Shown here: positions 3,320-31,970 of the stretch, piece by piece
Position numbering within the stretch: position 1 is the first letter of the stretch
Layout: each line of letters opens with the position of its first letter
DNA from: Nemertoderma westbladi
Lineage: Eukaryota; Animalia; Xenacoelomorpha
DNA: 50,993 nucleotides
Assembly: GCA_032718475.1 (NCBI GenBank)
Contig: JAUCBJ010002889.1
Location: 1 to 50,993 of the forward strand
Direction of reading: 5' to 3'
Made by a program: the position numbers and the translations under genes
Notes under the pieces: model-generated
Databases searched by the model: none
Told to the model about the DNA's origin: nothing
Seen by the model: only the letters and a program-made list of their open reading frames with translations

Positions 3320-3756
3320 TCACATTAATTAATATTAATTAATCACAATAATTAATATTAATTAATCACAATAAATAATATTAATTAATCACAATAAATA
3401 ATATTAATTAATCACATTAATTAATCACAATAATTAATATTAATTAATCACAATAAATAATATTAATTAATCACAATAAATAATATTAATTAATCACATT
3501 AATTAATATTAATTAAACATAATAATTAATATTAATTATACACAATAATTAACATTAATTAAACACAATAATTAATATTAATTAAACATAATCATTAATA
3601 GTAATTAAACACAATAATTAATATTAATTAAATACAATAATTAATATTAATTAAAATTAAACACAATAATTAACATTAATTAAACACAATAATTAACAAT
3701 AATTAAACACAATAATTAACATTAATTAAACACAATAATTAACAATAATTAAACAC
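3320..3756. repeat. AT-rich minisatellite
   Basis: ~21-bp degenerate unit ATTAATTAA(T/A)CACAATAATTAAT, abutting an exon donor site. Confidence 0.92.
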
Positions 3757-3760
3757 TTAC

Positions 3761-4384
3761 TTGTTTCAATAGTTACATTGGAATTCGGTTCGCCCGACAC
3801 TAGCGGTGGGTCCCCCAGTGTTGAAACGGTAACTATAGTGATAGTGTAACTCGTGCCAGAGACAGGTAAATGTAGATAAATAGTTTCGTTCGGCGTCTCT
3901 TTGTTAAATGGTTCACCACCATTGTAAGTAGCAGTAATTTTATATATGACATCTTCACCAACCTCACCCCACGTTAACACGGCGCTATCGTTGTCTTTAT
4001 CGTTGACTATAATACTATCATTATTGACGGATAGCGGTCTGGTGTAAGCTTCCTTATATTCAACTGAACCACTCTGCTCCCCATGTATTACTGTAACACC
4101 AATAGTGTACTCAGTGTTCGGAGACAGACCATCACAAATGAACGGTGGTCCAGTTGATGGTGACATTGCATTACAACTGCCTACATTAGAGTTATATGAA
4201 ACCTCGAACGTATATCCATTACCACTACTGGGTGAATCCCATGTGATTGTTATCGAATCGGTTGTTTGAGCGGTAACGTTAATCCCAGAAACCGTGGGTA
4301 CAGATTTGGTGGTGATATTGATAGAACCAGATGGATAATTGGTTTTTCTGATGGTTGAAATCAGGGAAACATTATATTCCGTCT
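3761..4384 (-). CDS. FN3 host gene exon (end of one FN3 plus 2 FN3)
   Basis: 624 nt, ctgtag|...A|gtaagt. Reads ETEYNVSL...ITITWDSP...LSPNTEYTIGV...VLTWG...SGTSYTITI. Same layout as exon 36564-37169. Confidence 0.88.
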
Positions 4385-5099
4385 CTACAGGAATAAATTA
4401 AAACGAGGGGATGTAGATTAAAGTTTAAGTAAACTTAATTTAATGAATGTTTTTAAAGTAAAAAAAATAAAAAAACGTATATATTATGTTCTTCGATAAT
4501 AGAAAAGTATCTGAATAAGTTTAAGCACTGTTTGTAAATAACTTTAATTGACTGAAATTCGATTATTTTCTCTGAGTGTGAGTGTATTGAGTTTTGCACG
4601 AATAGGCAGGTTTTAAAATGTCATCCGGGTATTCGAGTGCAAAACTCAATACACGAGGGCACAGGGCAAATCTGAACTGAAATGAGTGACAAGGAGGTCT
4701 TTCCGGCACGTTTTTTTTTTTTTATGAAAATGTTTTTTTCTACAAAATTTAACGAGTTACAGGTAGGAGGACCCTACTGATTTTATAATTAAATTGCATT
4801 AGGTAGGCGCTATGCCTGCTAACTACTTTCAGTTGGCAAGGCACACAACCGTTACCGTTGAATAAAATAATCTCGATATGTTGAATATATTATTACCAAT
4901 TATCATTTTTATTCATTTACAAATGATTATGTTGGAAATAATAACGGAATAGTGAATTATTGCGTTCAACCGATAAAAACAGCAATATAACATATTCATA
5001 TTGTTCTTTTGGTACGAAATGCGTCTATCAACAAATCTTTCAACAATAATCCGATATCTGTGATTATAATATCATATCAAAAATTTTAAAGGATAAAAG

Positions 5100-5170
5100 A
5101 TGCTGCTGTGGTCGGGTCTCAAACCCAATAAACAACATCACAGCCCCTGCGCTCTGCCGACTGAGCTAAA
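5100..5170 (-). repeat. tRNA-derived (SINE-like) remnant
   Basis: Minus strand reads TAGCTCAGTCGGCAGAGCG...GGGTTTGAGACCC (A box and B box). The stems are incomplete. Confidence 0.55.
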
Positions 5171-8068: not shown

Positions 8069-8598
8069 TATATATAAGTAGTTTTTGGTCCACCAAAAAG
8101 TCGACCTTATGGTCGACCAAAAATACTTGTCATAAAAGTACGTGTCCAAACAAGTGTTGGATAGGGTATCCTACATATATTCAGTTACAAAAGGTTCATG
8201 ATAATGTATAATCAACCTTCGGTTGTCACTAAAACTTACAGAAAATGGGTCTCGAATCTTCCGCAGCTACCTACGCCTACTGGTACCATCACATCAGTTA
8301 CACTGGCTAATGCCAAGAATCTTCTTAGCAACAACAGAAGCGACTTGGAGTTGGGAAACATCCCCCATCCTTACTCAATTAATGTTATTTGGCCAATGAG
8401 TAAATTATTTGGTGCAGAAAGTATGTGTTTTGCTAATTTTTTAATGTTTTTTTGGGTAAACTTTAATTGGTTATAGAATTATATTCCCTAAATGCCGTGG
8501 ATTTTCAAAATTTTATTTTATTCGAATTAACTTTGTAAAAGATTGCTTTGAGTCCTCATTTGTATTTGTTATATCTATTGTACGCCTATTGGTCAAGT

Positions 8599-8685
8599 GG
8601 TTCAGTAGCTCAGTCGGTAGAGCGTTGGAAATTATATGTGTAGTAGGTATTGAGTTCGAATCCTAGTAAGTGCGAATTATTTTTT
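8599..8685 (+). promoter_or_regulatory. tRNA-derived Pol III cassette in LTR U3 (second copy 23158-23244)
   Basis: A box TAGCTCAGTCGG (8606-8617) with an intact D-stem GCTC/GAGC, B box GAGTTCGAATCC (8652-8663), and a T6 run (8680-8685). The acceptor and anticodon stems do not pair, so it is not a functional tRNA. Confidence 0.75.
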
Positions 8686-8753
8686 GTGCAGAATTTCAAC
8701 TCATTTAAATTGACCGCTACAAATTAAAGTGCATTTGTTTGTACCTAGATTAA

Positions 8754-8900
8754 CCAATGACACTGTAGTTATTTGATCGTAACCAATGTCGTACAAGTTA
8801 TATATTAGCTGGACCAATAGCTATCTTTAAAAACCTGTTAGAACCTATAGAACAATCGAGAATTTTCTCGATTGATTGCAGCACAAATTTGCTATATAAA
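8754..8900 (+). promoter_or_regulatory. Pol II promoter of the LTR: three CCAAT boxes plus TATA box
   Basis: CCAAT at 8754, 8783 and 8814 (~30-bp spacing), TATATAAA at 8893-8900. Candidate AATAAA signals lie at 9008-9013 and 9591-9596. Confidence 0.7.
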
Positions 8901-10371
8901 GGTGCGATTTGTTCATTAGTTATACTTCTCAGATTATCTTATCTTATCAATATTCTGTCGTGCTTAGTTTATTTCAGATTACATTGTATTATAATTATAT
9001 CTTCTGTAATAAAGTCAGAATTATCGCTAATCTGCCTTTTCTATCTGTTTTACCATGATTCACCACGGTGAACCCAACTAAGGGACAGGATGGCCAGCTA
9101 GAGATCGGGCCGCAGCAATGAACGGGAACATCACGGGAATGTAGACAAGAGACAACCCGCAATACCATCTTGAGTTATTCGCCCATCGCCTGAAAGGTTA
9201 GACAGCGTTCGACGCCTCGCTACCTAAGCGTAAGACCAAAGATCAAAAGGTAGAAGTAGTGACACGCTGTGAGCCTAAAATTACATCTTAGGGACTGTAC
9301 TGTCTTGATTCAGGAAAAAACCACAGTAGACCTTCACATTCCTACGGGGGGAGAACGCAGGCAGATACTAGTACGCAGATAGGACGTAGGCACACCGGTA
9401 CGAAGCATACACATTGGTAGGGTGCAGCAAACTGTACGCCTAACTCTTGCTAAGTGCAGGTGCGTGTGCGACTATTTGTAGTACAACGGTGTCCATTGCA
9501 TTAGAACTTGTAGGCTAGAGGGGTTGCTGTGTTTTCACCTGAATTAGGATTGTACCGTTCAGGCGGTAGGGCAGTTTACAACTAGGCGCAAATAAATTGA
9601 GGCTATTAGGGATATACTAACATCTACCGTGTCCCCGCCAACGCCCTAATAGGAAGTTACCCAGCCTACCTAGGTGACTAAAATTCTAGATAAGAGCCAG
9701 GATAGCTATTAGTAACTGTACGCCTACAGTAGTAAACTAACACATCTCTTCTTAGTATCAGGGACCTGGTACCTAAAATTGCCGAATTCTGGGCGTAGCA
9801 TTAACCTTATGCCTGAATTTGAGTCCTGGAAATACGCAAGAGGGGAAGGAACCTTATCATTCGTGAGTATTGGACCTACAAGTTACAAAATTAGAATATT
9901 CGTAAAATGCACACCGTACCCAGTAATTATATATGTGAAGGAGCAAAACTGCTTTTGACTGTTTAGAATTAACACACACGCGCGTTAGAAATTATTTACA
10001 CCTCAAAATATATAAAATTAACTTTTGTCCGTACTGTGCTTTGCCCGCTAGTTAGACATCTCCAAATCTCTGCCTCTGTACCTAGCTAGCGTCCCTTTGC
10101 CCAACCATATAAATCACACCGCAGCAAAGTATACGAGCCCCTTAGTCCGTCAGTGAGTCAGCCTGATTTTAGGATTCGCTGCGCGGGATTTTGTTTTATC
10201 GAAGTTTGTCTGCTCGTAGACTGTTTTCTGCCTCACCGGTTATAAGAGATCGATACTGCAATATATTCGCTTACTTAGAGTTTATTGTTTTGGTGAGAAG
10301 GTCGGATTTATGATTTGATTCACAAACTTTACAGTAGGATATTGCAGGTATTGTTACTGTCTCTTCGAATA

Positions 10372-10390
10372 GTAGGAATGTGTTTTACTG
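10372..10390 (+). promoter_or_regulatory. Putative non-tRNA primer-binding site
   Basis: Directly follows the 5' LTR and lacks TGG. GTAGGAATGTG is the exact reverse complement of LTR-internal CACATTCCTAC (9335-9345). Confidence 0.65.
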
Positions 10391-10707
10391 AACTACGGTT
10401 CGGTAGGACTAAAGTTATTTGAAAATTTTGTATTTTGAGGTAAAAATGTATATTTGATTAGCTAAGTGCTAATTTTTTGAAATAAAATTTGATTTGAACC
10501 GCGTGTAAAATATTTTTGGAATTGAATACCGGTGTTTAAAAAGGGTTTAAATACCATATTGTACCGGTACAAAATTTTCGTAAAGTAAAACCTAACTCTT
10601 TTGTTTTTTCAGGATTCAGAACTCATTTCTAGACTGTAACGGGAGCAAGACCGTGTTTAGCAAGTTTGGGAGATAGATAACTCAACAACTTTGGTTGGGA
10701 AAATCGT

Positions 10708-10998
10708 GTTTCGTCCGCAACGCTGGAAACGGAAAGGTTCACGTTCGGTTTGTATCTGGGAATCTGTTTTTTCTGGAGAATTATTGGAGTGGGTGAGTTC
10801 GAAAAGTTGCATAAATAAGTTAGGCATTACCGTATTAGTTAAAATTATTGTGGTTTCGTCCGCAACGCTGGAAACGGAAAGGTTCACGTTCGGTTTGTAT
10901 CTGGGAATCTGTTTTTTCTGGAGAATTATTGGAGTGGGTGAGTTCGAAAAGTTGCATAAATAAGTTAGGCATTACCGTATTAGTTAAAATTATTGTGG
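10708..10998 (+). repeat. 145-bp tandem duplication in the element's 5' leader
   Basis: GTTTCGTCCGCAACGCTGG...AAAATTATTGTGG occurs twice, with starts at 10708 and 10853. Each copy contains a GG|GTGAGT splice-donor consensus. Confidence 0.92.
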
Positions 10999-11326
10999 GT
11001 TCCACTGTCTCAAGTATTTATGCATTCCGTATGATTTCTTTGTTCATTGCTGAATTAGTCCGTATTATTGTATTTAATTTACCTTTTGATAACGCAAATC
11101 GTTATCCGATTTATTTGTTATAAAATTGGCCGCTAGGCTAATTTTATTATATACTTATTCCGTGACATTTATTTGCTGTAAAATTGGCCGTTTAGGCTAA
11201 TTTTATCCATCTGCTATAAAATCGGCCGGTAGGCTAATTTTATATGACTGTAATTAGTACCGTTTAGATAAAAAACGGTAAGTTTGATACTTTGACACTC
11301 ACTTTACTTGACTTACAACTACCGAA

Positions 11327-13270
11327 ATGAGTGACAAACAAGACTATACGAAGAATACACAAACCGACTATGACTCATGTGACGGAGATAAGTCAGCAGC
11401 GGAAGAACAACAGGGGAAGACTCGCGAGCCTACCGAACCTACACCGTGTGCGTCACCAGTACATCCAACGGGAGTACCGGATGCCGTAGTACGAGGCGAC
11501 GGCAGGACCGAGGACTTTCTAACTGTTCCGCAACCTAGATACAGGGAAACGGACATGGTAAGTTCAGCAGGAAGCCAGGAGAGTGTGGTTAGAAGCGTCG
11601 GAGGTTACATGGCGCATATAACCAGGAGTATTGGAGAAGGCCAACGCATATTAAACGAGTTGACCGCTCCGATGTCTCGATTCGAGTTCTACACCCTCCA
11701 GGTTAGAGTACAAAGTAGAGTACACAAGTCCGTAGATAACCTAATTGGTCTACAAGATCTAGCTAGACAGAGACAGGACATGGATACTCAACTTAGAATC
11801 CTCGAGAAACTAATGATCGCTAGAGAGAAACTGATTCAGTTTAAGTCGACGATTAGGCAGGTACAACAGGAACAAGCGGACCAGTTGTTAGGTGAGTCAG
11901 TTTCGGACGAATTATTACAACCCGAGGAAGAACAGGAACTGTATAGGCTAGATGGACAATTGAAACACCTGACAGATCACTTACGCATGTGCGGCGAGGA
12001 CGTCGGAGATTGGGAAACCGTGCCGGAGGCTACGAGGGAAACTTCGCTCGCACAAATCGAACTGGCACCGGGAACACTAAATCAATCACTGGTGAGTATT
12101 CGCAGCGAAATTGGCGAGGTGAGTATGGCTACGTCAGAAATTGCTCGACAACAGCAGCTCTACAGACAACAACGAGAAATCGAGGAACAAACTCAGTTAT
12201 TGACGTTACAAGCAGCTGTAGAGGAAGATAAACTACGTGTCGCAAATGTTGCGAGAATTTCTCATCTGCAAGAACAAGCTGAGTTGGAAGCAGCCGAAGT
12301 GGAAAGGTTAGAGTTGGACATTGCACAACAAGCGGCAGCGGCCGAGTTAGCGCAACAAACAGCTGCGGCCGAGTTAGAGCGACAAAGGTTAGCTTCAGAA
12401 GCGAGAACCGAAATGAAAACACGGCAAATAAAGGCTCAGTCAGCTATACGACAAGCAGAGTTCGAGGCGCAACAACAACAAACGGAACAACGCGAGAAAG
12501 AAGTTAAACTTCGTTTCGAACTCGAGAAGAAGGCGAGAGAATTAGCCAACACCAACGAAGATCTGGATCTACAAGCCCGCGATCGATCGATGAGATCTCG
12601 AGACGGACATGATTTGGACCAGTTAGAGGTAAGACATCGCCAAATTCAGGAACGAAAGAAGGAAGGAAGCGTAGGAGCACCCGGATGGGAACGACAATTA
12701 GTAAAAGACTTGTGTCAACGATTCCCACAAGTAACTCCTATGTTTGCACCGGTTACGACTAAGGAACCTGTTTCGATTGCTGGTAGTAGTAATATTTCTC
12801 CTATCCATGGTGCGACGGAACACAGGTTTGTTATTCCGGACAAGTTTACACCGCCAAGAGCAACGTCATTGCCTATTCCAAAAGTCAAGGTAAGTAACCC
12901 ACCGATTACAGATCGTAGTAGTTTATTAGTCGGACCTGCACTACTGACGACTAAACAGGTGAGTCCACCTTTGACGCCAAAACCTGTTACACACTACGCT
13001 TACCCAATGACGTTTAGGCCAACAAGGCCTTTGGATTCAAACGCTGTCGTCCGACCACCGGTCCAGTTTACATCGCAATCTACGACTTCGAGGAAGACTT
13101 GTGAGCCTACCGAACAACGGAGATCAGTGGATACGCGACCGTTCAACCAGTGTACATCGCAATCTACGACTTCGAGGAAGACTTGTGAGCCTACCGAACA
13201 ACGGAGAACAGTGGATACGCGACCGTTCAACCAATTTACATCGCAATCAGACTTCGAGGAAGACTTGTGA
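11327..13270 (+). CDS. gag: N-terminal part of the BEL/Pao Gag (coiled-coil, Q/E/A-rich), frameshifted from the rest of the polyprotein
   Basis: ATG-initiated 647-aa ORF inside the element. Its TSRKTCEPTEQ repeat continues in the next ORF's frame after a net 2-nt loss near 13249. Confidence 0.8.
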   Translation: MSDKQDYTKNTQTDYDSCDGDKSAAEEQQGKTREPTEPTPCASPVHPTGVPDAVVRGDGRTEDFLTVPQPRYRETDMVSSAGSQESVVRSVGGYMAHITRSIGEGQRILNELTAPMSRFEFYTLQVRVQSRVHKSVDNLIGLQDLARQRQDMDTQLRILEKLMIAREKLIQFKSTIRQVQQEQADQLLGESVSDELLQPEEEQELYRLDGQLKHLTDHLRMCGEDVGDWETVPEATRETSLAQIELAPGTLNQSLVSIRSEIGEVSMATSEIARQQQLYRQQREIEEQTQLLTLQAAVEEDKLRVANVARISHLQEQAELEAAEVERLELDIAQQAAAAELAQQTAAAELERQRLASEARTEMKTRQIKAQSAIRQAEFEAQQQQTEQREKEVKLRFELEKKARELANTNEDLDLQARDRSMRSRDGHDLDQLEVRHRQIQERKKEGSVGAPGWERQLVKDLCQRFPQVTPMFAPVTTKEPVSIAGSSNISPIHGATEHRFVIPDKFTPPRATSLPIPKVKVSNPPITDRSSLLVGPALLTTKQVSPPLTPKPVTHYAYPMTFRPTRPLDSNAVVRPPVQFTSQSTTSRKTCEPTEQRRSVDTRPFNQCTSQSTTSRKTCEPTEQRRTVDTRPFNQFTSQSDFEEDL

Positions 13271-13297
13271 GCCTACCGAACAACGGAGATCAGTGGA
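13062..13297 (+). repeat. 84-bp tandem repeat (about 3 copies) within gag
   Basis: TACATCGCAATCTACGACTTCGAGGAAGACTTGTGAGCCTACCGAACAACGGAG recurs at 84-bp and then 82-bp spacing. Confidence 0.93.
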
Positions 13298-16200
13298 CGA
13301 TGTTCCGAAACGAAACGTTAGAATTCGTACGACGCAACGGACGCGAGCACGTCGACCACCATATCCAGATGATAGTAGTACTTCGAGCGAATCGGATTAC
13401 CCGAAACGCGAGGTATTTAGAACAGGGGCGGCCGATGAATATAAACGCGAGCGTTCAGACAACTCCTTTGTAGACAATCCTCCACAGAATACACCAACAC
13501 AGAAGGCGTTACAACCAACGGACGCAATCAGTACTCAACAGTTCGCCGACATCCTGCGACCAGTTGTTAACAAGTTGGCTCAGATCGAGGAACGTCTGGA
13601 GGAAGTTCAAACCGATAGTTCGAGGAACACTGAATTCGAACACAATAGACACCCGAAGGAACCACAAAGACCGGTACCTTCAAAACACCCATCGTATCAG
13701 GGAAAAGCGCCAAGAAGGGAGAATATCCGCCAGACTACCAACCAAGGACGCGAAACTCTGAACGTTGCCGAGGAGATAGCGAAATTCGCAGCCAGACAGG
13801 GATTGCCGGTGCAACAACCACCGAAGTTTTCCGGTAGCTCAAAACACTGGCACACTTTCGTAGACTATATCGAATCCCAGATCGCCGTGTGCGCCTTTAC
13901 ATCACGGGAGAAGTTTAATTACCTGCTCCAAACGTTGTCAGGAGAACCTAAACGTTTGGCAGAGACCTTCGTTGGTGTACCGGACGCCTTCGAACTAGCG
14001 TATGATCGTTTAACTTCGATATACGGAGGTACAGTCAGTATGGCCAGGTCAGTGATAGAAGAACTCTGTAAGGGAGGGGCTATCACTAAACCCGTCGACT
14101 TATTAAAACTGGCCGACGAGATAAAGAACGCTATCACTACTTTAAGATCCATTGGACAACTTGACTACGGGAATACCCCTACAGTCCTATTAAAGATCAT
14201 AGGACGACTCCACCATCGACTTCGTCGGGAGTGGAGAAAGATCGAAAACCAGCGAGAAGAGCGGGGTGGATTCTTAAAACTGGAGGATGTGTACCTTTTA
14301 ATATCCAGGGAGGCAGTAGTAGAAACTCGATCCAACTACACTGACCAGCACATCGTGGCAGAAGGAATCACATTGCCATCCTCCAACCGACAAAAACCCC
14401 AGACAACATCCACCAAGACGGCCACATACGCCACATCGACGGAAACCCGACAATTCTCGGACGGAAGTAGGGTATCTGCGCCCATTGGGACGAAACAGAC
14501 GAGACAGCAACTCAGTACCGACTTCAGCGGCTGCCAATACTGCGAGCATTTAGGCAAGCGGTATATCGGTCACAAGTTACGAAGTTGTCGACAGTTTCGC
14601 GAGTTGAACTCGGAAGAACGACGGCTGCAGATACGGCCATTGGACTCTTGTTGGCGGTGTACGCGACACGGACACGTCCGTAAAGATTGCCCAAATACCG
14701 ACACTTGTCCATTCTGTGGACGCAACCACGACGGTCTGCTCCACACAGACAGCCACACACCGACAAAACGCTTCGCCAGGGAACACCCGGAAGCAGCAGC
14801 GAGATGTGATGCGGCCTACAGAAAACGAGAATCGAAAACGACTCCAACCTTCGTGACCCATATTGAGGATTGCTTCTCAGAACAATCCGGATCGTCGGAC
14901 GAAGAGTCAGAAGACGACGACGTATATTCGGATGGAGATGAACACCCATCGATCGCGCTTCTGACTACTGACCAACTGAAGGGATTCAGTGTAATTCCGA
15001 TTAAGATTACTGGCACAAAGGGGAGTAAGAGAATCTACGCTATTCTAGATTCAGCCTCATCTCACAGCTACGTGGACGAGCAGATAGCTGACGTCGTGAC
15101 GGATCTCAGACAAGGTAAGCGCGTCAGTTATACCGTAAGTAGTATGCACGGACAGCGTGCAATACCAGTGACACGAGTTAAGTTGGACTTAGACACTCTT
15201 CTTCCAAAATCGCAACACAGCGAGAGGGAGAGGTCTTTGTTACCCTTCAAGGATCTGACTTTTGCGGCCACCAAAGACTTTAGTAACCTACTAGGTCCGG
15301 TCCCAGAACAATCCTTGGAGGACCGTAAGTATTTCAGACACCTTGGTGTACCTGAATGTCCTGTCAATTATAGATCGGTAGCCATGCTGATCGGGACGGA
15401 CCAATTCAACCTACATCAGGTGTGGGAAACCAGACCATCGGCAGTCGTAGCGGGAAACGCATACGCCTGTAGAACGCCGATAGGGTGGTATACTCGAGCG
15501 CCTGTGCGCACACTGGACATAAGTGACGAGGAAGACGATGTACAAAGTACATGTAGTTTATTAACTACAAATTCAATTCATTCCTTTTCACACGACGTGG
15601 ACCATACTACCTTACATACCAGACATGACAGACGTGTAACTAGTATGATAAGTCACAAGGAGCAGCTAACCCACCAGGTGAGTTTAGAACTTGGGGAGAA
15701 GACGAGTCAGTCAGAGATTCCATCGACGACAGATAATAACGCCGGAAGGCTTGCGAGTCTACCTACCCCAACGACCTCAACAATGCCCGTCGATATCGAT
15801 GATGACGCGTTGAAAATTCACCAATTGGAACAAGCTGTATTGGACAAAGAATTAACGGAGAAGACTATCAGGTGGTTAGAACAAGATACAGCTGAACCTG
15901 GTAGCTATGAACCATGTATGTCGGAACAGGAGAAACAATCTTTGAGGATCATGGAAGATACTATCCGCCAGACGAAAGACGGACATTATGAGGTGGGGAT
16001 GTTATGGCGTAGCCAAAGTCCTAAACTTATAAATAACTACCCACTAGCTCTAAGACGTCTACACTCAATACGGCAACGTCTATTAAAGGACGAGAAAGCC
16101 CATCTGCAGTATAACACTCAGATGGAGACGTATTTGACAAAGGGATACGCTATCCGAATGACTAACCCGGAGCGAGTGACTGACCAGACGTACTACTTGC

Positions 16201-19200
16201 CACATCACTACGTAAGACACCCCGACAAACCAGACAAAGTACGAGTAGTCAATGACTGTGCGGCTCTGTTTGAGGGAATGTCCCTCAATAGCGAGTTGAT
16301 GGATGGACCAAACATGAATAATTATCTTATGGGGGTGATTATGCGCTTCCGTCAGCGTCAAGTAGCTTTTACTTGCGACGTTGAAGCGATGTTTCACCAA
16401 GTGAGAGCGTTAGAGCGAGACAGAGACAGTTTGAGGTTCCTCTGGTATCCGGAAGGAGACTTAAGTCTACCACCGGCGACTTACCAAATGCAAGTTCGCG
16501 TTTTCGGTGCCAGGGACAGCCCAAACTGCACGATGTACGCCCTAAAACAAGCCGCTAGGGATCAGAAACACCTGTATGACCCAGAGATAATTAGGATTGT
16601 GGAACGTGACTTCTACGTCGACGACGGATTACAGAGTTGCGATACAGTAGAACGTGCTACAACAGTAGCACATCAATTACGGGACTGCTTAGCGGGCGGA
16701 GGTTTTAACCTCACCAAATTCGCCTCAAACAGTGCCGAATTAGTAGACTCATTCGGAACGACTGAGCGTGGAGGTGGTGACATAGACCTAGAGTTCGAAC
16801 CACTACCGACGACCAAGGTGATGGGGCTCTTTTGGGACCCAAACACGGACAACTTTCGAGTGAAAGTGAGACTGGACAGTCAAGAAAACACACTGACAAA
16901 GAGATCATGCTTGTCAAAATTGAGCCGATTGTTCGATCCATTAGGATTCATCAGTCCAGTAATACTGCAAGCTCGCATTTATATGCGCAGTATTTGGAAG
17001 GATGGACTGACATGGGACGAGCCGATCTCATCAGACCAAGTGGACTTATGGAAGACCTGGGAAGCGGAATTATCTTCGCTAGAGGATTATTCCATACCCA
17101 GAGTTTACTTTCCATTACAAACAACATTTCCTGACAACTTGGAATTACACTGTTTTTCTGACGCCAGTGACAACGGCTTTGGTGTGGCAGCGTACTTGCG
17201 CAGACAAGTAGACTCAGAAGCATTCGATGTTTCGCTCATTACTTCTAAGGCAAAAACAATGCCTACTAAGTATATGACGACACCACGAGCTGAGCTACAA
17301 GCCGCAACCCTGTCAACCACCATCGTGAACCTTATACAGACAGAACTACAGTCAAGTTTACAGATATTTTATTGGACTGACGCGACGTTGGTTTTATTTT
17401 ACATAAACAATGACACACTTGAATTCAAGACATTCGTAGCTAACCGTCGCGCAGAAATTCTAGACCGTTCAATAAAAGAGGATTGGCGAAATTGTCCCGG
17501 ACCACAAAACCCAGCTGATATTGCGTCGCGAGGAATGATGCCTGAGGAATTCTGTAAACCGGAGAACAAAGAATTTTGGCAACACGGACCCCAATTCTTG
17601 CAGAAATCGATGCAAGATTGGCCACCGTTATATGACAACAAGTCTAACACCATCCCTAAGGACGCCGAAATCAAGAAACCAAAAAAGGGGAAGGCAAAGA
17701 AAAAGACAACGGTGGCAAAACTCAAGAAAAAACCGAAGGCGAAATGGAAAGCGATAACTTCAAAGGTCAAGAGAGGAAGACTTGCGAGCCTTTCTACACC
17801 AGACATATCGCCAGACGGTCAAACAGACACGTTACTAGACAGCCAACCAGACATTTTGCCAGACATATCACAAAATGTTCTACCAGACACTAGTGACATA
17901 TTGACAAATAGTAAAGCCGCAGTTTCTCTATTGGAGCGGCCTTCTATTGACAAACAACCAGATACGTTACCAGACGTATCGCCAGACACGTTACTAGACG
18001 GTCAACCAGACGTTTTGCCAGACACGTCACTAGATATTTCGCCGGATGTTCCGCGAAACATTTTACCAGACATGTCACAAAATGATATACCAGACACTAG
18101 TAACATATTGATAAACAATAAAGCCGCAGTTTCCCTATTGGAGCGGCCTTGTATTGACAAACTACCAAATTTGACACACTTGAGCAACCATAAGCACGGT
18201 GAAACCTCATGTATTACAGATGTGGGTAGTACCTACGCTAATGTAAATACAGGTGTTACTCTGCGCTCAAGAGACATACCGAACTTACAACCTATGGTGA
18301 AACCTGGGATTAATATCGGCAGAAAAATAAGCTTACCGAAACCCACTGACCCCATAGAGTTCAAACCACCATTAACGATCGACTTACAAGGTACTGACAA
18401 TCAAGGTAAGAAGACGAAGAAGGACAAATTACTTGTAGACCCGGACGGATCAACAGTCAACAAGGGAATACTTACCGGCGGACCCGTGGGCCCTTCTAGT
18501 AAATCAAAACCTTCCAAAATCTCCATTGACTTACCTGATGACGTCACAAATACTCACGTCGACCGTATTGTAAACCTAACAGACTCTTGGACGAACGCTT
18601 GCCGAAAATTAGCGTGGATTGTACGTTTTGTACAATACGTTAAAGGCAAACGCGACTTTACACGTCGACTTACATTGGCTGAGATTGACAGGTGTGAAAT
18701 TAAATTAATTCGCCATTACCAACTGCGATATTTCGCACGCGAATTCACATCTATAAATCAAGGCCTACCAATCAAGTCGTCACCAATACTGAGTTGGAGT
18801 CCGATAATTTATAATGGCTTACTTTGTCATAAATCTCGGCTTCAAAACATTGACCTTAACACAAACTTTAGATACCCTATAATAATACCACAACATCACG
18901 AACTACAACGTGCAATGATACTGGACGCACATTTGCATCTGAAACACGCTGGAAGACACCACTGTCTTTCCTACTTACGTACAAGATTTGTATTAATTAG
19001 ACCCAGTAAAGCGTTAAGTTCAGTGACACGTACGTGTATTATTTGTAAAAAGGTACATTCTAGAATAGGTACCCAAGAAATGAGTGAACTTCCACAAGCA
19101 CGACTTCAAGCATTCAGACCACCTTTTACAGAGACTGGAATTGATTGCTTTGGTCCCATACATACGAAACGTGGACGTATACTAGTAAAACGCTGGGGAC

Positions 19201-20066
19201 TGATTTTCACATGTATGTCCAGTAGGGCAGTTCATATTGAACGTGTGATGGATCTTTCCACCAACGCGTTTATACTAGCATTGCGGCGATTTATCGCTAG
19301 ACGCGGACTAGTGAAATGCTTGTACTCAGACCAAGGGACAAACTTTGTTGGTGCTCGAAATGAGATTACTAGAGCCTTTAAGAAATTAGATCATGATCAA
19401 ATCTCGAACGAACTACAACCTCACAAGATTGTTTGGAAGTTTAATCCTCCAGATAGTCCATGGAGAGGCGGAGTCTGGGAGAGATTGATTAGATCTATAA
19501 AGACAGCCATGGCAAAGGTCATTCCAGTAAACCACATACTGACAGACGACCAACTGACAACATTGTTTGTTGAAATCGAGGCAATACTAAATACTAGACC
19601 AATAGTATTAGTACCCGATGACAAACAATCTCAGTTCGCTTTGACACCGGCACACCTGCTTATGCAGGCACCGACAACTTTGACGCCTATTTCTATTCCA
19701 ATAGAAAGCGATAGCTACGGTAGAAAAGCGTGGAAAATCACGCAACTACTAGCTAACAAATTCTGGGAAATATGGCAAAACCATTATTTGCCCTCTATTT
19801 CTGCCAGAACAACTTGGTACAATAACACCCGCGCATTAAAGCCGGGAGATCACGTGCTGTTAGCGGAAGTGTATCTAAAAAGACGCTTCTGGATAACAGG
19901 TGTAATTTTAGCCACACATCCATCTATGGATGGAGTGACAAGAACTGTGACAGTACGGACAATTGACGGTCGTACAGTTGACAGACCGACTCAACGTCTC
20001 GTACTTCTTGAAGAGACTCGTAACGAGTCTGGAGACTACAAATCTCCACCTAATACTAGTAAATAA
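13101..20066 (+). CDS. pol: BEL/Pao Gag-Pol polyprotein (capsid, 3 Zn knuckles, protease, RT, RNase H, integrase)
   Basis: Knuckles CQYC..H..C, CWRC..H..C, CPFC..H..LLH. Protease ILDSAS. RT YLPHH, RVVNDC, DVEAMFHQ, FGARDSP, FYVDD. RNase H HCFSDAS, PRAELQAA, YWTD, NPADIASRG. Integrase HHCC, GIDCFGP, SDQGTNF, GGVWERLIRSIK. Confidence 0.96.
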   Translation: MSLPNNGDQWIRDRSTSVHRNLRLRGRLVSLPNNGEQWIRDRSTNLHRNQTSRKTCEPTEQRRSVDDVPKRNVRIRTTQRTRARRPPYPDDSSTSSESDYPKREVFRTGAADEYKRERSDNSFVDNPPQNTPTQKALQPTDAISTQQFADILRPVVNKLAQIEERLEEVQTDSSRNTEFEHNRHPKEPQRPVPSKHPSYQGKAPRRENIRQTTNQGRETLNVAEEIAKFAARQGLPVQQPPKFSGSSKHWHTFVDYIESQIAVCAFTSREKFNYLLQTLSGEPKRLAETFVGVPDAFELAYDRLTSIYGGTVSMARSVIEELCKGGAITKPVDLLKLADEIKNAITTLRSIGQLDYGNTPTVLLKIIGRLHHRLRREWRKIENQREERGGFLKLEDVYLLISREAVVETRSNYTDQHIVAEGITLPSSNRQKPQTTSTKTATYATSTETRQFSDGSRVSAPIGTKQTRQQLSTDFSGCQYCEHLGKRYIGHKLRSCRQFRELNSEERRLQIRPLDSCWRCTRHGHVRKDCPNTDTCPFCGRNHDGLLHTDSHTPTKRFAREHPEAAARCDAAYRKRESKTTPTFVTHIEDCFSEQSGSSDEESEDDDVYSDGDEHPSIALLTTDQLKGFSVIPIKITGTKGSKRIYAILDSASSHSYVDEQIADVVTDLRQGKRVSYTVSSMHGQRAIPVTRVKLDLDTLLPKSQHSERERSLLPFKDLTFAATKDFSNLLGPVPEQSLEDRKYFRHLGVPECPVNYRSVAMLIGTDQFNLHQVWETRPSAVVAGNAYACRTPIGWYTRAPVRTLDISDEEDDVQSTCSLLTTNSIHSFSHDVDHTTLHTRHDRRVTSMISHKEQLTHQVSLELGEKTSQSEIPSTTDNNAGRLASLPTPTTSTMPVDIDDDALKIHQLEQAVLDKELTEKTIRWLEQDTAEPGSYEPCMSEQEKQSLRIMEDTIRQTKDGHYEVGMLWRSQSPKLINNYPLALRRLHSIRQRLLKDEKAHLQYNTQMETYLTKGYAIRMTNPERVTDQTYYLPHHYVRHPDKPDKVRVVNDCAALFEGMSLNSELMDGPNMNNYLMGVIMRFRQRQVAFTCDVEAMFHQVRALERDRDSLRFLWYPEGDLSLPPATYQMQVRVFGARDSPNCTMYALKQAARDQKHLYDPEIIRIVERDFYVDDGLQSCDTVERATTVAHQLRDCLAGGGFNLTKFASNSAELVDSFGTTERGGGDIDLEFEPLPTTKVMGLFWDPNTDNFRVKVRLDSQENTLTKRSCLSKLSRLFDPLGFISPVILQARIYMRSIWKDGLTWDEPISSDQVDLWKTWEAELSSLEDYSIPRVYFPLQTTFPDNLELHCFSDASDNGFGVAAYLRRQVDSEAFDVSLITSKAKTMPTKYMTTPRAELQAATLSTTIVNLIQTELQSSLQIFYWTDATLVLFYINNDTLEFKTFVANRRAEILDRSIKEDWRNCPGPQNPADIASRGMMPEEFCKPENKEFWQHGPQFLQKSMQDWPPLYDNKSNTIPKDAEIKKPKKGKAKKKTTVAKLKKKPKAKWKAITSKVKRGRLASLSTPDISPDGQTDTLLDSQPDILPDISQNVLPDTSDILTNSKAAVSLLERPSIDKQPDTLPDVSPDTLLDGQPDVLPDTSLDISPDVPRNILPDMSQNDIPDTSNILINNKAAVSLLERPCIDKLPNLTHLSNHKHGETSCITDVGSTYANVNTGVTLRSRDIPNLQPMVKPGINIGRKISLPKPTDPIEFKPPLTIDLQGTDNQGKKTKKDKLLVDPDGSTVNKGILTGGPVGPSSKSKPSKISIDLPDDVTNTHVDRIVNLTDSWTNACRKLAWIVRFVQYVKGKRDFTRRLTLAEIDRCEIKLIRHYQLRYFAREFTSINQGLPIKSSPILSWSPIIYNGLLCHKSRLQNIDLNTNFRYPIIIPQHHELQRAMILDAHLHLKHAGRHHCLSYLRTRFVLIRPSKALSSVTRTCIICKKVHSRIGTQEMSELPQARLQAFRPPFTETGIDCFGPIHTKRGRILVKRWGLIFTCMSSRAVHIERVMDLSTNAFILALRRFIARRGLVKCLYSDQGTNFVGARNEITRAFKKLDHDQISNELQPHKIVWKFNPPDSPWRGGVWERLIRSIKTAMAKVIPVNHILTDDQLTTLFVEIEAILNTRPIVLVPDDKQSQFALTPAHLLMQAPTTLTPISIPIESDSYGRKAWKITQLLANKFWEIWQNHYLPSISARTTWYNNTRALKPGDHVLLAEVYLKRRFWITGVILATHPSMDGVTRTVTVRTIDGRTVDRPTQRLVLLEETRNESGDYKSPPNTSK

Positions 20067-20726
20067 TTAGGAGTTTACAAATAGATTTCCACGTACCTGT
20101 ACACCGTAGTAAGGACAGCGGTAGAATTCCATTGTCTTTATATGTGAACATTGAGGGTGGTACCCTTATGTGTCACATAGGAGCGGGATTTGTAGGTATA
20201 AGAAATGGAATTCTACTTGGAACTCACAATATTGAGACATTTTCGAAATTTTAGACAATCCATTTGGATTTGAAAAATTTTTAAAAATTTTCTCCAGTGA
20301 ATAGATTTCAGGGTACAGTCGGGTGGAACTTAAAATTAGAGAAACAAGAGAGGAAGACTTGCGAGCCTTTCTTAAAATTTTAATTAAAATTTTACACGGT
20401 CTTGTTTCAATAAGTTACGTCAAAATAGACTCCCCTATATTTATTACTAATTCTTGACTGCTTATTTTCTGATAATAGTTTGGGATCAAAAAGTGAGTAT
20501 TTTAGACTCACAGCCAGTTTAGCCCAAATTCGTTTTTATTTCGGCAAAAATTTTAGATAAGAAGCAGCGTGTCATTAAAGAAACCCTAGATCTTAGGCTA
20601 TGGGTAGGAGGTTAGAGCGTTGTCGAGCCCAAAGGGCAGACGAAACTCTCACGTCTCCTCACAACTAACTACAAACTCTGTTGTATTCCCTCTAGTAGTA
20701 ATGATTATGTAACTACACCCCTAATT

Positions 20727-21560
20727 ATGGAGAAAGGGATACAAGGAGAGCCGAGATGGGGATATGATATCCAAGAGGAGGCAGCAGCGCCATTCGAAAG
20801 ATTTGGAGCCAAGGATTATACTATATTCGGTATAAAAGAATTATCGGAAAGTACAGCGAAACTCGCGAGAACTAAATATGACTCAAATGTATTAAAGAGA
20901 AGGCAAAACGCATTAAACGAAAGAATCGAAAGTTTGCGCCAAACCTTCAACGAACTTTACCCGTACGACGCTTTGTGTGATACGGGAGACATTAGCGAAG
21001 ACCCCGATACTGAAATTAGTCGTTTGTATCATACCATGCAATACCTAAAGGCGCACGAACCTATGCCCGCGGTAAGAGATGAATTTGATGGAATGCATCT
21101 TTACAGACGAACTCGAGGGGACGATAGAGAAACAAAGGAAGCATTTTCAGTTTATAAACTTTATTATCAATGCGGTTCTTGTATGCGTGAACAACGAAAT
21201 GCGATTCCGATGCGTTTGAATAAGGAAAATCCCGAACCGATATTGGCGAGGTGTTCGAACCATCAACAACTACGCTACCAGGAAGGAGGGTATCCTTTAT
21301 CAAATCCATATCATTCGTTTGCTATGACCGGACCAAAGGCGGGAGAAACTGTCGTTTACCCACCTAAGGTTGTTGAACCCGATGCATTTGAACTTACGCT
21401 GGACGAGGCGAATCAGTCAACCCGCAAAAGAAAGAAGCTCTTAGCCTATACAGAGCCTACAAGGCTTTCGAGAAAGGTGAGATGGAAGAATGGGGCAGAA
21501 GACTCGCGAGCCTACCTTACCATTGGACGTCACACGATCAAACGCCAGCTAAGGAGATGA
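20727..21560 (+). CDS. Accessory ORF3 of the retrotransposon (277 aa, unknown function, CxxC...CxxH motif)
   Basis: ATG-initiated sense ORF between pol and the 3' LTR. Contains YYQCGSC...ARCSNH and basic TRKRKK. No signal peptide or TM segment is visible, so it is not a typical env. Confidence 0.7.
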   Translation: MEKGIQGEPRWGYDIQEEAAAPFERFGAKDYTIFGIKELSESTAKLARTKYDSNVLKRRQNALNERIESLRQTFNELYPYDALCDTGDISEDPDTEISRLYHTMQYLKAHEPMPAVRDEFDGMHLYRRTRGDDRETKEAFSVYKLYYQCGSCMREQRNAIPMRLNKENPEPILARCSNHQQLRYQEGGYPLSNPYHSFAMTGPKAGETVVYPPKVVEPDAFELTLDEANQSTRKRKKLLAYTEPTRLSRKVRWKNGAEDSRAYLTIGRHTIKRQLRR

Positions 21561-21596
21561 CACCCGAAATTTTCGAAAGTATAAATTTTGCCCAAA

Positions 21597-22064
21597 ATGT
21601 TCAATCGTATCACATATGGTGAATTTGATCGGTTTCGAACGGAAAAGCGAAACAAGGGAGCTTGGTTAACCGTCGCATGGGCGTACCGAGCCGCATTCTA
21701 CCATAAACGTATACGAGCGAGCGTATTCGAGGAAGAGGAGGTCCTAGAGGCGACGAATATACCAGCCACCCCGGTTGCGCCGTCTGCACGTCACCCTCGG
21801 GAGGACGGACAGGGTAGGATCATACGGGTCCAGAAAGTGGGCCAACAATTAAAGAAAATTATTAATATAGAAGAACGCAAGGGAGTTGAGCCGACCATTC
21901 GAATTACTCGGGATACGGTATCGCTTCCTAGAGAACCAATAGGAGGATCGGGACATACACCAGCTGATCAACAGGGGGCGCAAGCTACTCTTGGGTCTGC
22001 GTCGTCCGCTTCTCGCGCGTTCCCAGACGTTCTACCAACTGTAGTGACAACTGATCGGTCATGA
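21597..22064 (+). CDS. Accessory ORF4 (basic, unknown function); frame stays open to 22238 after one TGA
   Basis: Same frame as ORF3, ATG at 21597. After TGA 22062-22064 the frame continues for 57 codons, ending FRGRGRARSTKR* (22238). Confidence 0.5.
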   Translation: MFNRITYGEFDRFRTEKRNKGAWLTVAWAYRAAFYHKRIRASVFEEEEVLEATNIPATPVAPSARHPREDGQGRIIRVQKVGQQLKKIINIEERKGVEPTIRITRDTVSLPREPIGGSGHTPADQQGAQATLGSASSASRAFPDVLPTVVTTDRS

Positions 22065-22800: not shown

Positions 22801-23030
22801 TATATTGGTGAATTTAATTTAGATTTATATTGTACTTACTTAGTAAAGCCCTAAATACGTAAAGTTTGAATTTGTAATTAATTTTGTATCGAATCATTAC
22901 GTAGAAAGGAAGTATTGTTTGAAATTTAATTGTAAATATGTAAGTACGCCCTAAGTATTCTATAGTTTGATTGATTATTGGTGAAAACCGTATATTTTAT
23001 GCACGATAATATCCTGTTTTCATGGAGCGG

Positions 23031-24937
23031 TATAGAATTATATTCCCTAAATGCCGTGGATTTTCAAAATTTTATTTTATTCGAATTAACTTTGTAAAAG
23101 ATTGCTTTGAGTCCTCATTTGTATTTGTTATATCTATTGTACGCCTATTGGTCAAGTGGTTCAGTAGCTCAGTCGGTAGAGCGTTGGAAATTATATGTGT
23201 AGTAGGTATTGAGTTCGAATCCTAGTAAGTGCGAATTATTTTTTGTGCAGAATTTCAACTCATTTAAATTGACCGCTACAAATTAAAGTGCATTTGTTTG
23301 TACCTAGATTAACCAATGACACTGTAGTTATTTGATCGTAACCAATGTCGTACAAGTTATATATTAGCTGGACCAATAGCTATCTTTAAAAACCTGTTAG
23401 AACCTATAGAACAATCGAGAATTTTCTCGATTGATTGCAGCACAAATTTGCTATATAAAGGTGCGATTTGTTCATTAGTTATACTTCTCAGATTATCTTA
23501 TCTTATCAATATTCTGTCGTGCTTAGTTTATTTCAGATTACATTGTATTATAATTATATCTTCTGTAATAAAGTCAGAATTATCGCTAATCTGCCTTTTC
23601 TATCTGTTTTACCATGATTCACCACGGTGAACCCAACTAAGGGACAGGATGGCCAGCTAGAGATCGGGCCGCAGCAATGAACGGGAACATCACGGGAATG
23701 TAGACAAGAGACAACCCGCAATACCATCTTGAGTTATTCGCCCATCGCCTGAAAGGTTAGACAGCGTTCGACGCCTCGCTACCTAAGCGTAAGACCAAAG
23801 ATCAAAAGGTAGAAGTAGTGACACGCTGTGAGCCTAAAATTACATCTTAGGGACTGTACTGTCTTGATTCAGGAAAAAACCACAGTAGACCTTCACATTC
23901 CTACGGGGGGAGAACGCAGGCAGATACTAGTACGCAGATAGGACGTAGGCACACCGGTACGAAGCATACACATTGGTAGGGTGCAGCAAACTGTACGCCT
24001 AAGGCCTAACTCTTGCTAAGTGCAGGTGCGTGTGCGACTATTTGTAGTACAACGGTGTCCATTGCATTAGAACTTGTAGGCTAGAGGGGTTGCTGTGTTT
24101 TCACCTGAATTAGGATTGTACCGTTCAGGCGGTAGGGCAGTTTACAACTAGGCGCAAATAAATTGAGGCTATTAGGGATATACTAACATCTACCGTGTCC
24201 CCGCCAACGCCCTAATAGGAAGTTACCCAGCCTACCTAGGTGACTAAAATTCTAGATAAGAGCCAGGATAGCTATTAGTAACTGTACGCCTACAGTAGTA
24301 AACTAACACATCTCTTCTTAGTATCAGGGACCTGGTACCTAAAATTGCCGAATTCTGGGCGTAGCATTAACCTTATGCCTGAATTTGAGTCCTGGAAATA
24401 CGCAAGAGGGGAAGGAACCTTATCATTCGTGAGTATTGGACCTACAAGTTACAAAATTAGAATATTCGTAAAATGCACACCGTACCCAGTAATTATATAT
24501 GTGAAGGAGCAAAACTGCTTTTGACTGTTTAGAATTAACACACACGCGCGTTAGAAATTATTTACACCTCAAAATATATAAAATTAACTTTTGTCCGTAC
24601 TGTGCTTTGCCCGCTAGTTAGACATCTCCAAATCTCTGCCTCTGTACCTAGCTAGCGTCCCTTTGCCCAACCATATAAATCACACCGCGGCAAAGTATAC
24701 GAGCCCCTTAGTCCGTCAGTGAGTCAGCCTGATTTTAGGATTCGCTGCGCGGGATTTTGTTTTATCGAAGTTTGTCTGCTCGTAGACTGTTTTCTGCCTC
24801 ACCGGTTATAAGAGATCGATACTGCAATATATTCGCTTACTTAGAGTTTATTGTTTTGGTGAGAAGGTCGGATTTATGATTTGATTCACAAACTTTACAG
24901 TAGGATATTGCAGGTATTGTTACTGTCTCTTCGAATA
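23031..24937 (+). repeat. 3' LTR (1907 bp)
   Basis: Direct repeat of the 5' LTR, with an extra 7 bp near 24001 (GCCTAAGGCCTAAC). Preceded by a short purine-rich GGAGCGG (putative PPT) and followed by TTGGT. Confidence 0.95.
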
Positions 24938-25687
24938 TTGGTAGCTCTTTCTTCATTACCAACTCAGGCCGGTTTTGCAAAGGCTGGAAATATTTTATAT
25001 ATGTCACGCAAGCCAGTCGTCAAAAAGCAGAGACGTGATTGGTGCAAGTATGTTGTTCAGCTTCCCAGTGGATGGTTACAAATTTTGGGATTTCTGTCCA
25101 ATGGAATTTCATTGCTTGGCCTGTTGAGAAAGCCCTCATAGATGCGGGGCGAAAACTACCGATCATCTCACTGCCGTCAGCTGATCGTCAGCTGATCACT
25201 AATGCAACTCTATAATAAATATTATATTGATTATTGTTCCCTCAAGCTTTATTTACTTCAAAAAGATATAACTGTTGTAAACGTTGATAAGGAATGATAT
25301 TGATGTAACATTATTTTGCAGTTACAATAACAACTGTACGGTGATACAGGCTTATACTTTGCGTATGGCAACGGCTATCATTCAAGCATTCACAAATAAT
25401 AATTGGTAAATGTTGTTTCTAAGTTGTTTTTACTTTTCTGCGTTTCGAACTAAAGGCGCTAACGCTGCAAAGTATTACTTTTCAACGTTGCGAGTATTTC
25501 TCCAGAGCTCTGAGAAGTTGGCAAAATGTAACAATAACTATTTACATCATTGTGTGCAAAGTAGCCCTTTGCAGCGTTATGACCCGAGTTTATTTATGTA
25601 CGGAGCGAGCGCAGCGAGGGAGGTTTTCATAAATAAACAAGGGTCTTTCACGGTGAAAAGTGACCTTTGCAAGCAATGGTGTATGTA

Positions 25688-28697: not shown

Positions 28698-29413
28698 CTA
28701 AAAAATGCCAATGGATGTTAGGAATATTCAGTAATTGTAGACTTTGATAGTTCCTTTATTATTAATTATGAAACATGTTGAATGTAATTTGTTTTGTTAG
28801 GAAAGAGAATAGGCACAGGCAGACAAATAAATCGTACATATACATAGTACCGGTATTTAAATGAAAAATATACCTGAAATTAAAAAGTACAAAGGTGAAA
28901 AAATACATCCAAATTGGTGTAAATGTTGCCAAAATTAATGCTGATAGAATATTACATTATAAAGGTGAGTTGGTAAGTTTATACACCTCGACCCAGAGTA
29001 ATACAGTGAGTCCAATAGGTTCCCTTTGTGTGATGGAAAATCAGTAATTAATCTAACTATCAGTTAATTATTAGTTTCTCTGAAAACATTCAATATGTAT
29101 TCCAAATAAATATCAATGGTGCAAATTCCATTTGCACCTCATTCATGTGTCTGTATGATGTTGTGTGTGCATGTGAATGTGCACTATAATCAGTGATCTC
29201 ACAAGCAAGCGGTGCCAACAGACAAGACAGATGCCATCGTAAAAGCTATAAATATTGTCATGAGTATATAGATATGATCCAAGGTGTACTTAAATCACAT
29301 AAAAATAACAAATTATGGTGCCCCAATGAGGTAAGGTGGTTTAAAATAACCAGTGTTTCATTTGTGCCACATAAACTAAAAACAACAGCAAGACACACCC
29401 ACGTTTAACCTAC

Positions 29414-30259
29414 GAGTTGTAAAGTTGTCCATGGCAACAGCAGCTTCAAACCCATCAGCCACAGTTGCTATAGAAACATTGTAAACAGAACCGGGTTGGA
29501 GATTATCAATAGAGATGTTGCTGAACTTGGTAAAGGTTTTATTGGGAAGGTTGCTGCCTCTTATAGAATAATGGACTGAGTAACCAGATATGGTGCAGCT
29601 ACAACTAGGTTGCACCCAGGACACCAACAAGTGGTGTTCACTGGAATCGAGCAGTACAAGGTCACTAGGTGGCGCTATAGTTGTAGGGAACGAATACCAA
29701 GTATCCTGCGAGGGGGCGCTGGGTATACCGTTACTCCAGGCCCCTACCGAGATTTCATAGACAGTCCCAGGGTCCAATCCGTCTAGAACCACTTCCATAG
29801 AGTCAATAGGAGACTCGACAGCAAAGTCAACGGAGTCTACGATACTGGGGGTCCAACCCGGGACGTTTCGACTACGATAGTAAACAGTAAACCGATCCAC
29901 CAAACCTGGACCCACAGACCAACCAATGTGGAGAGAGTCGATAGAGGAGTCCAGACTATACAGGTCGCTAGGCAATGTGGGTAACGTAGCCAATCGGGAG
30001 AGAGCTGGATGACTGGGTTTATCGTTGTAAACAGCAGTAACATTTATATCATAAACCATCCCGGAGATTAAATCAAACGCTTCGGCCTTGTTTACTACAC
30101 TTGTTACCATGGCCACTGTATCCTTATAAGGAGGTAGAAGCGCGGTAAAGGAAACATTGTAATAATCTATAGAAACACCTTCTAGAACATTGTCCCAAGC
30201 AACGATCATTGATTGGTTGTCATGGGATACAAGATAGAGACCGGTTGGACTTTCTGGAG
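29414..30259 (-). CDS. FN3 host gene exon B copy 1
   Basis: 846 nt, ag/gt boundaries, phase 1-1. Confidence 0.9.
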
Positions 30260-30487
30260 CTACATAAAGAAAAATGTGAAAATATTAAGTCGGGCACAAA
30301 TATTTGGTTTAAAAGTTGCATCAAATTTCGATAAAGAGAACAAAATGAAGAAACACAAAAACATGTCATTATTTTTATTTTAAGAAAATATATTCGAATT
30401 ATCTTCCTAGAACAACAAAAAGGAAATACTGAGGAGGATAGACCAACAAAAATGAAACTAATTAATTAAGAAGATAATAAAACTCAC

Positions 30488-31303: not shown

Positions 31304-31789
31304 CTAATGGGAAAATAAAATAATACAATTATATATTTTTTATATAATATTACATCTGGTGATTTTCAATAAACATAAACAATTCGCAAAAAAACACCCA
31401 GCGCTTCTGAAAATTAACATCGATATACTTATTCCGCTTTTCAGTTTTTTTTTGTTGTAAACAAACAGGAAAATATAAAGAAGAAACGTTTTCAACTGAA
31501 AAATTTCACCAAACCAAATAATTAATCTTTGGTATTTTCCGAAAATTATCACAGTCCTACGAAACCAAAAGGTCAAAATATATAAGGTCTTAGGATAAAC
31601 TCGAAAGTCAAATAAGATCTAAAGGAATAATATGAGTGGAGGAGAATAAAGGTGAATGATAGATGATTATTATCATATTGTAAACACTGAATATTACACT
31701 CTTGTATTGCAAGGTACCTGCATAATAGTGACCGGTGCACATTATATCAAACAGTGTACACATATGTGTGTGGAAAGATGAAATGAGTG

Positions 31790-31970
31790 TACATAATCTA
31801 TACCAACTGTGCACACAAAAGGTTGTAGATGGAAGAAATGGTACATAATCTATACCAACTGTGCACACAAAAGGCTGTGGATGGAAGAAATGGTACACAA
31901 TCTATATTAACTGTGAACACAAAAGGTTGTAGATGGAAGAAATGGTACACAATCTATATTAACTGTGTAC
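31790..31970. repeat. 52-bp intronic tandem repeat (3-4 copies)
   Basis: TACATAATCTATACCAACTGTGCACACAAAAGGTTGTAGATGGAAGAAATGG repeats here. It accounts for most of the length difference between the duplication periods. Confidence 0.88.

Follow-up and report, generated by a model that had tools for sequence, protein, structure and literature searches.

A candidate self-primed BEL/Pao retrotransposon in Nemertoderma westbladi with a primer-binding site complementary to its own LTR

The element and its primer-binding site

What primes reverse transcription in a BEL/Pao retrotransposon whose primer-binding site (PBS) carries no TGG? The question is raised by a 16.5-kb element in Nemertoderma westbladi, located in the window analyzed here (the whole 50,993-nucleotide stretch of contig JAUCBJ010002889.1, assembly GCA_032718475.1; features lie on the forward strand unless stated otherwise). 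The ICTV description of Belpaoviridae gives an 18-nt PBS for the 3′ end of tRNA-Arg or tRNA-Gly, LTRs of 0.2 to 1.2 kb, and genomes of 4.2 to 10 kb, and calls replication in the family poorly understood (PMC8742986). The window element has no such 18-nt PBS, which is a descriptive trait of the family and not its phylogenetic definition. Its PBS, GTAGGAATGTG (10372-10382), begins at offset 0 from the LTR end, and no TGG occurs at offsets 0 to 5.

Self-comparison of the window delimits a 5′ LTR of 1,900 bp (8472-10371) and a 3′ LTR of 1,907 bp (23031-24937), both with TA..TA ends. A 5-bp target-site duplication, TTGGT, is present on the left (8467-8471) and on the right (24938-24942) and fixes the LTR limits despite termini of TA..TA rather than TG..CA. 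Breakpoints (loose ends) at 8472 are also found in two other sequencing runs, among the ends listed. Two relatives described below (L046 and L023) likewise show a TA end on one LTR side. The insertion is recent, since the two LTRs differ by only 1 substitution and one 7-nt indel.

The 3′ LTR is preceded by a short purine-rich tract (23024-23030). ORF1 (11312-13270) spans 652 codons from stop to stop, with a first ATG at 11327 and no Pfam family, and ORF2 (13011-20066) encodes, in order, DUF1759 (PF03564), the RT region, the Pao Peptidase_A17 (PF05380), an integrase zinc domain (PF17921, below cut-off), and DUF5641 (PF18701), with the integrase after RT/RNase H. The two ORFs overlap in different frames (13011-13297) inside a tandem repeat of ∼84 bp. 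The RT/RNase H part of ORF2 is 37 to 43% identical to the best 120 of 1,298 BEL/Pao-type proteins; every homolog among these 120 contains PF05380, and the named ones come from marine invertebrates and a fish. Pao-type Gag/Pol domains and LTRs that flank gag-pol within a target duplication place the element in BEL/Pao (Belpaoviridae).

Several other features were observed within the element and around it. Extra ORFs without Pfam matches lie between the integrase and the 3′ LTR (20616-21560 and 21585-22064), and an Atlas search with the ORF at 20730-21557 returned no match above 0.76. Direct repeats include a 145-bp unit in the leader (10708-11002) and a repeat spaced by 207 bp between RNase H and integrase (17851-18167). 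A tRNA-like relic with A box and B box is present in U3 (8598-8670, limits approximate; 3′ LTR copy, 23157-23229), at which ARAGORN called no tRNA gene; a related copy lies in the flank (5150-5168, minus strand), and the relic is likely a SINE head or a polymerase III promoter that the LTR has acquired. The element is flanked by an oppositely oriented host gene with numerous FN3 domains (3726-4397 and 29376-37179, minus strand), which contains near-identical 2.4-kb tandem duplications. Further out are a 42-bp satellite array (38537-49500) of at least 257 in-register copies and two copies of a MITE-like element with long terminal inverted repeats (991-1799 and 37577-38163).

The first-pass annotation of this DNA had noted an exact reverse-complement match between the first 11 bases past the LTR and a stretch of the LTR itself. 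A search of the whole window bears this out, as the reverse complement of the PBS, CACATTCCTAC, occurs only at 9335 (9335-9345) and at its 3′ LTR copy (23894-23904). A shifted LTR boundary that would supply a TGG is excluded by the TTGGT duplication. A published rule for self-primers asks for at least 10 complementary bases 0 to 5 bp past the LTR (PMC6317226), and the window element shows 11 nt at offset 0. No splice-built primer was accepted for this element, for which the best strict match across a junction is 8 nt versus the 11 contiguous nt. Complements in the LTR are rare for internal 11-mers in general (12 of 12,649). Among the variants listed, none falls within 9321-9351 or 10372-10382; the list is partial and is no test of the primer or the PBS.

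The match could also be fortuitous or act only as a structural switch, with a tRNA half or another small host RNA as the primer. Priming by tRNA-Arg or tRNA-Gly is the ICTV account of the family, and half-tRNA primers lack TGG (PMC6317226). However, chance alone accounts poorly for the complementarity, as only 2 of 5,000 dinucleotide shuffles of the LTR contain the 11-mer, and any match at offsets 0 to 4 arises in 11 of 5,000.

Self-complementarity among BEL/Pao relatives

Relatives of the window element were collected from an RT/RNase H alignment, which gave 79 metagenome loci and 24 loci in prokaryote bins (103 in total). The latter (L080 to L103) carry animal-type BEL/Pao elements and are most likely host DNA that was binned by mistake. 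No relative was found in viral contigs. A usable LTR end was available in 18 of the 103 loci, of which 14 were firm (a 5′ LTR end and a whole LTR copy) and 4 uncertain; the second LTR pair of L094 was excluded, as the RT of this locus lies outside it. Scoring, under a strict and a loose rule, covered both contiguous matches and those that span a GT..AG intron of the LTR.

Under the strict rule, self-complementarity of at least 10 nt is present in 12 of the 14 firm-end relatives, in addition to the window element. The same threshold is reached by only 4 of 210 swapped PBS/LTR pairs, three of which join sister families, and by 1 of 300 downstream 30-mers. The loose rule gives 13 of 14 relatives versus 13 of 210 swapped pairs. 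Both strict misses have 8 nt: L087 shows 10 of 11 by eye across a canonical intron, and L089 reaches 11 under the loose rule. L089 is also the only one of the 14 relatives with a TGG near the LTR end, and this TGG site is also complementary to the element's own LTR junction when the loose rule is applied. The four uncertain-end relatives, in which the end was chosen among several candidates, give 12, 11, and 9 nt and one unscorable case.

Clade-wide covariation between PBS and LTR is visible within sister families. Pairing is kept between L081 and L084 with letters changed on both sides at two first-exon positions, and between L051 and L071 with letters changed on both sides at one position, which are the compensatory changes that the first-pass annotation had proposed to look for. 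Its central claim, tRNA-independent self-priming in BEL/Pao, is well supported by these relatives, and we consider self-priming of some kind very probable for the window element. A fixed host RNA cannot explain a PBS that varies by family and tracks its own LTR, and we regard priming by a host RNA as improbable. The 103 relative loci contain no tRNAs.

The 16 matched primers all end in AC (11), AT (2), or AACT (3). The window 11-mer, which ends in AC, bears, as judged from its letters, the primer-end signature of the clade. In 12 of 15 relatives the primer end is followed by a poly(A) hexamer at a distance of 0 to 97 nt, and in none is it preceded by one. This position fits a cut in cis with an R region that extends past the cut, and at the level of the clade it agrees with the earlier prediction of such an R.

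Priming in trans, in which the RNA 3′ end of a second molecule at 23904 (or 9345) would prime on an uncut template, has in its favor that L081 and L084 carry AATAAA immediately after the primer end. Hexamers downstream of the primer, as in the relatives, are nonetheless on the wrong side for making that end, and no hexamer occurs within 338 nt upstream of the window primer end. This end is followed by GGG and not by a splice donor, which makes spliceosomal cleavage an unfit source. We judge priming in trans to be very improbable. The first-pass annotation had offered an internal cut at 9345/9346, an RNA 3′ end at 23904, and a second start at TCACATT as three alternative routes. They do not hold as alternatives, as a start at the initiator still needs the cut at 9345/9346 and an end at 23904 would lack a near poly(A) signal.

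Most relatives have a primer whose two parts lie on either side of an LTR intron. Contiguous and splice-built primers do not cluster on a quick tree (4 changes, shuffled mean 3.7), and scattered contiguous primers would be expected if the LTR intron is occasionally lost. The relatives share 34 to 42% RT/RNase H identity with the window element, which sits on a long branch of the quick tree (1.68). Because of this distance and the long branch, they support the mechanism of the clade and not the details of the window family.

Folding, promoters, and splicing of the LTR transcript

RNA folding predicts an unbranched rod at 9292-9560, with the primer in its 5′ arm and the partner strand at 9507-9532. 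The sense strand folds at −114.7 kcal/mol (z = −7.84; 0 of 200 shuffles), a z value somewhat flattered by rod limits picked after viewing the fold, and a fixed-step scan gives −4.6 for 9272-9541; the antisense strand has a z of −0.39. G.U pairs make up 18 of the 99 pairs of the rod. In these fold models, sense-only folding together with the G.U pairs points to selection on the sense RNA. A DNA inverted repeat was rejected as the sole origin of the rod, as the sense strand alone folds well. The six substitutions listed in the rod (three unpaired, two pair-keeping, and one pair-breaking) and the three indel sites listed (two unpaired and one paired) are too few to count. The rod ends 30 nt ahead of AATAAA at 9591-9596. 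Rfam searches of 8400-11400 and 9200-9700 returned nothing notable. A second strong sense-strand fold was observed right before the ORF1 start codon (11072-11341; z about −8 against 8 shuffles).

The predicted pairing of primer and PBS depends on where the RNA starts. Its probability is 0.99 for a start at 9335, 0.96 at 9320, and 0.89 at 9314, and 0.00 for starts at 9300, 9250, 9197, and 9100. Forcing the helix costs at most 0.9 kcal/mol for starts at 9312-9335 and 6 to 24 kcal/mol for earlier starts, in folds that are unreliable over 1 kb and ignore chaperoning by Gag. On these figures, the rod would keep the primer from the PBS in every RNA except those that start at 9312-9335.

At 10382-10409, just past the PBS on its 3′ side, folding predicts a 12-bp hairpin whose loop is C(UACG)G (z = −4.2; 0 of 200 shuffles). 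G10382 is drawn into this hairpin, and the stable primer helix would therefore be 9336-9345, starting at A9336. The second, 7-bp helix of CAGTAGA with TTTACTG that had been proposed earlier has real complementarity and forms in short two-strand folds, but none of the five full-leader folds with both strands gives it a probability above 0.00, because 10382-10409 folds into the UACG hairpin instead. A Tf1-type R-U5 duplex likewise forms in short two-strand folds and has a probability of 0.04 in full folds. The hairpin was rejected as a trait of the clade (z of −5.5 in the window versus −1.6 to 1.5 in 13 relatives).

Two of the signals named by the first-pass annotation, a TATA box and AATAAA at 9591, are present in the LTR. 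The TATA box of the upstream promoter lies at 8893-8899, with an initiator-like A at 8922 as the probable start. AATAAA at 9591 (3′ LTR copy, 24157) follows the primer and the rod and is a candidate for the end of R; an additional AATAAA precedes the primer at 9008 (3′ LTR copy, 23567). Initiators loosely follow the motif YYANWYY, and 20 initiator-like sites occur in the LTR. Only one of them, A9336 in the TCACATT that overlaps the primer, has RGWYV at +28 (AGATA, 9363-9367; background 2.2%), which is the consensus of the DPE (PMC1538597). The site agrees with Drosophila TCAKTY at 4 of 6 letters only. The initiator-like and DPE-like motifs, together with the modeled folding, favor a start at 9336.

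Seven sequencing runs are on record, none of them as RNA, and four were compared over 8350-11400. One run, X4, shows 78 A>G against 19 T>C substitutions, while the two counts are 27:24 in X1 and 28:27 in X3. From the A>G excess and a splice joint we infer that X4 is RNA, although it is listed as "DNA?". The joint connects 9194 to 10611 and, with the cut moved by +2, reads as a GT..AG intron at 9197-10612. Among the joints listed it is found in X4 alone and is absent from X1, X3, and X5; it is carried by one contig of depth 249.8, with a short side of 23 nt at 80% likeness. For this joint to form, transcription must begin upstream of 9194, most simply at the TATA box; since the joint reads as an intron, it also implies an mRNA that contains neither primer nor PBS. 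The depth of X4 contigs is ∼800 to 900 over 9277-9462 and 9520-9932, below 100 over 10390-10593, and far higher before ∼9060, although contig depth is a poor measure of abundance and contigs cannot show RNA starts. Coverage past the primer hints weakly at RNAs that run beyond it, and the fall after ∼9060 hints, as weakly, at transcripts that often terminate at the first AATAAA (9008/23567).

The upstream promoter implied by the X4 joint also suits a scheme in which one long RNA primes itself. An unspliced TATA transcript (∼8922) would be refolded, either through Gag or through loss of a small intron upstream of the primer, and cut at 9345/9346 into a capped fragment of ∼425 nt whose last 11 bases pair with the PBS. 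Relatives lend this scheme some support, as their splice-built primers often lie far from the TATA box, which would make long 5′ fragments the rule of the clade, and their primer starts have no initiator (initiator plus DPE, 0 of 15). Four relatives bear a TATA box; the primer is well downstream of it in three (133 nt, 215 to 235 nt, and 49 to 240 nt), and the fourth, L017, fits a start near the primer at 31 nt. In L017 (6627-6745), the TATA box precedes a 5-nt primer exon by 31 nt and a 77-nt intron follows; if real, this is an extremely short first exon. With no initiator plus DPE in the relatives and TATA boxes mostly far upstream, the clade may have no need for the primer at the cap. In the window element, however, the helix has to be forced at a cost of 24 kcal/mol in RNA that begins at 8922, and the cost is still 15 kcal/mol after splicing of 9197-9313. 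The primer does become free (0.76) when 9460-9757 is taken out, yet both LTRs keep that stretch; its splicing is unlikely, since a single round would be enough to erase from the LTR any intron that lies past the cut. We see the scheme of a single long RNA as the strongest alternative, though a rather unlikely one for this element.

Proposed route of priming and comparison with known systems

We hypothesize that the window element separates its two RNAs by promoter choice. Transcripts from the upstream TATA start would have the primer folded into the rod and would be spliced (9197-10612) to an mRNA that lacks both primer and PBS. A second start at ∼9336, which lies within the rod and past the 9197 donor, is predicted to yield the genomic RNA, whose first 10 to 11 bases would pair with the PBS. 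A cut at 9345/9346 would then release the primer 3′-OH, as in Tf1, and by the same analogy the nuclease would be the RNase H of the RT. The rod would also mask the copy of the primer at the RNA 3′ end. R would extend from ∼9336 to just past AATAAA at 9591/24157, which would permit strand transfer. For the exact two-promoter route, with a second start near 9335-9336 and a cut at 9345/9346, we see an even chance. The broader picture is offered more tentatively, namely that a large marine-invertebrate branch of BEL/Pao is self-primed, with this family controlling priming by promoter choice and an RNA switch and its relatives by primers built at splice junctions.

No report of BEL/Pao self-priming was found among the titles and opening abstract lines listed by literature searches. 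A term look-up in the Sinbad paper and a BEL/Pao survey met no mention of PBS or tRNA (PMC554778, PMC3118150), and the parts consulted of two further papers contain no BEL self-priming (PMC3601003, PMC3286476). If the proposal is true, none of the three LTR superfamilies lacks self-priming, which would be the common state in the sampled BEL/Pao branch, and annotation tools that demand a tRNA PBS would misjudge such elements. The element offers exact testable coordinates for the separation of mRNA and genomic RNA by one LTR (9336, 9345/9346, 9197-10612, and after 9591).

The window element shares with Belpaoviridae (BEL/Pao, Semotivirus) the Pao Peptidase_A17, DUF1759, DUF5641, an integrase after RT, LTRs, an animal host, and a 5-bp target duplication. 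It departs from the ICTV description in its lack of a tRNA-type PBS, its 1.9-kb TA..TA LTRs, and its length of 16.5 kb. Self-priming has also been proposed for the TAR lineage of Ty1/copia (Houba and Osr-1) and for Tcn1 chromoviruses (PMC6317226). These are plant elements of other superfamilies, and the sections of that paper drawn on here mention neither a masking rod nor a splice-built primer.

The closest parallel is the Tf1/sushi group. In Tf1, Tf2, and Tj1, the PBS right after the 5′ LTR is complementary to a stretch of the LTR and the primer is released by a cut, and in Tf2 the choice of start site decides whether the RNA can be reverse-transcribed, according to the portions of these papers used here (PMC4600332, PMC10085805, PMC5341516). 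The window element shares with Tf1 and Tf2 of Schizosaccharomyces pombe, with Tj1, and with the group the complementarity of the PBS to its own LTR and, as proposed, the cut. It is not a member, as the group has a Ty3/gypsy chromovirus Pol, whereas the window element has Pao-type domains and no chromodomain. The three-duplex "pretzel" of Tf1 is not predicted here; the UACG hairpin after the PBS and the 270-nt rod are predicted instead. The 1.9-kb LTR with two candidate promoters is a further difference. The unproductive start of Tf2, as described in those portions, lies downstream of the LTR, while that of the window element would lie upstream and would be coupled to the splicing out of primer and PBS. 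Relative to these systems, the new features are the predicted rod, which would mask the primer, and a splice by which the RNA loses primer and PBS alike.
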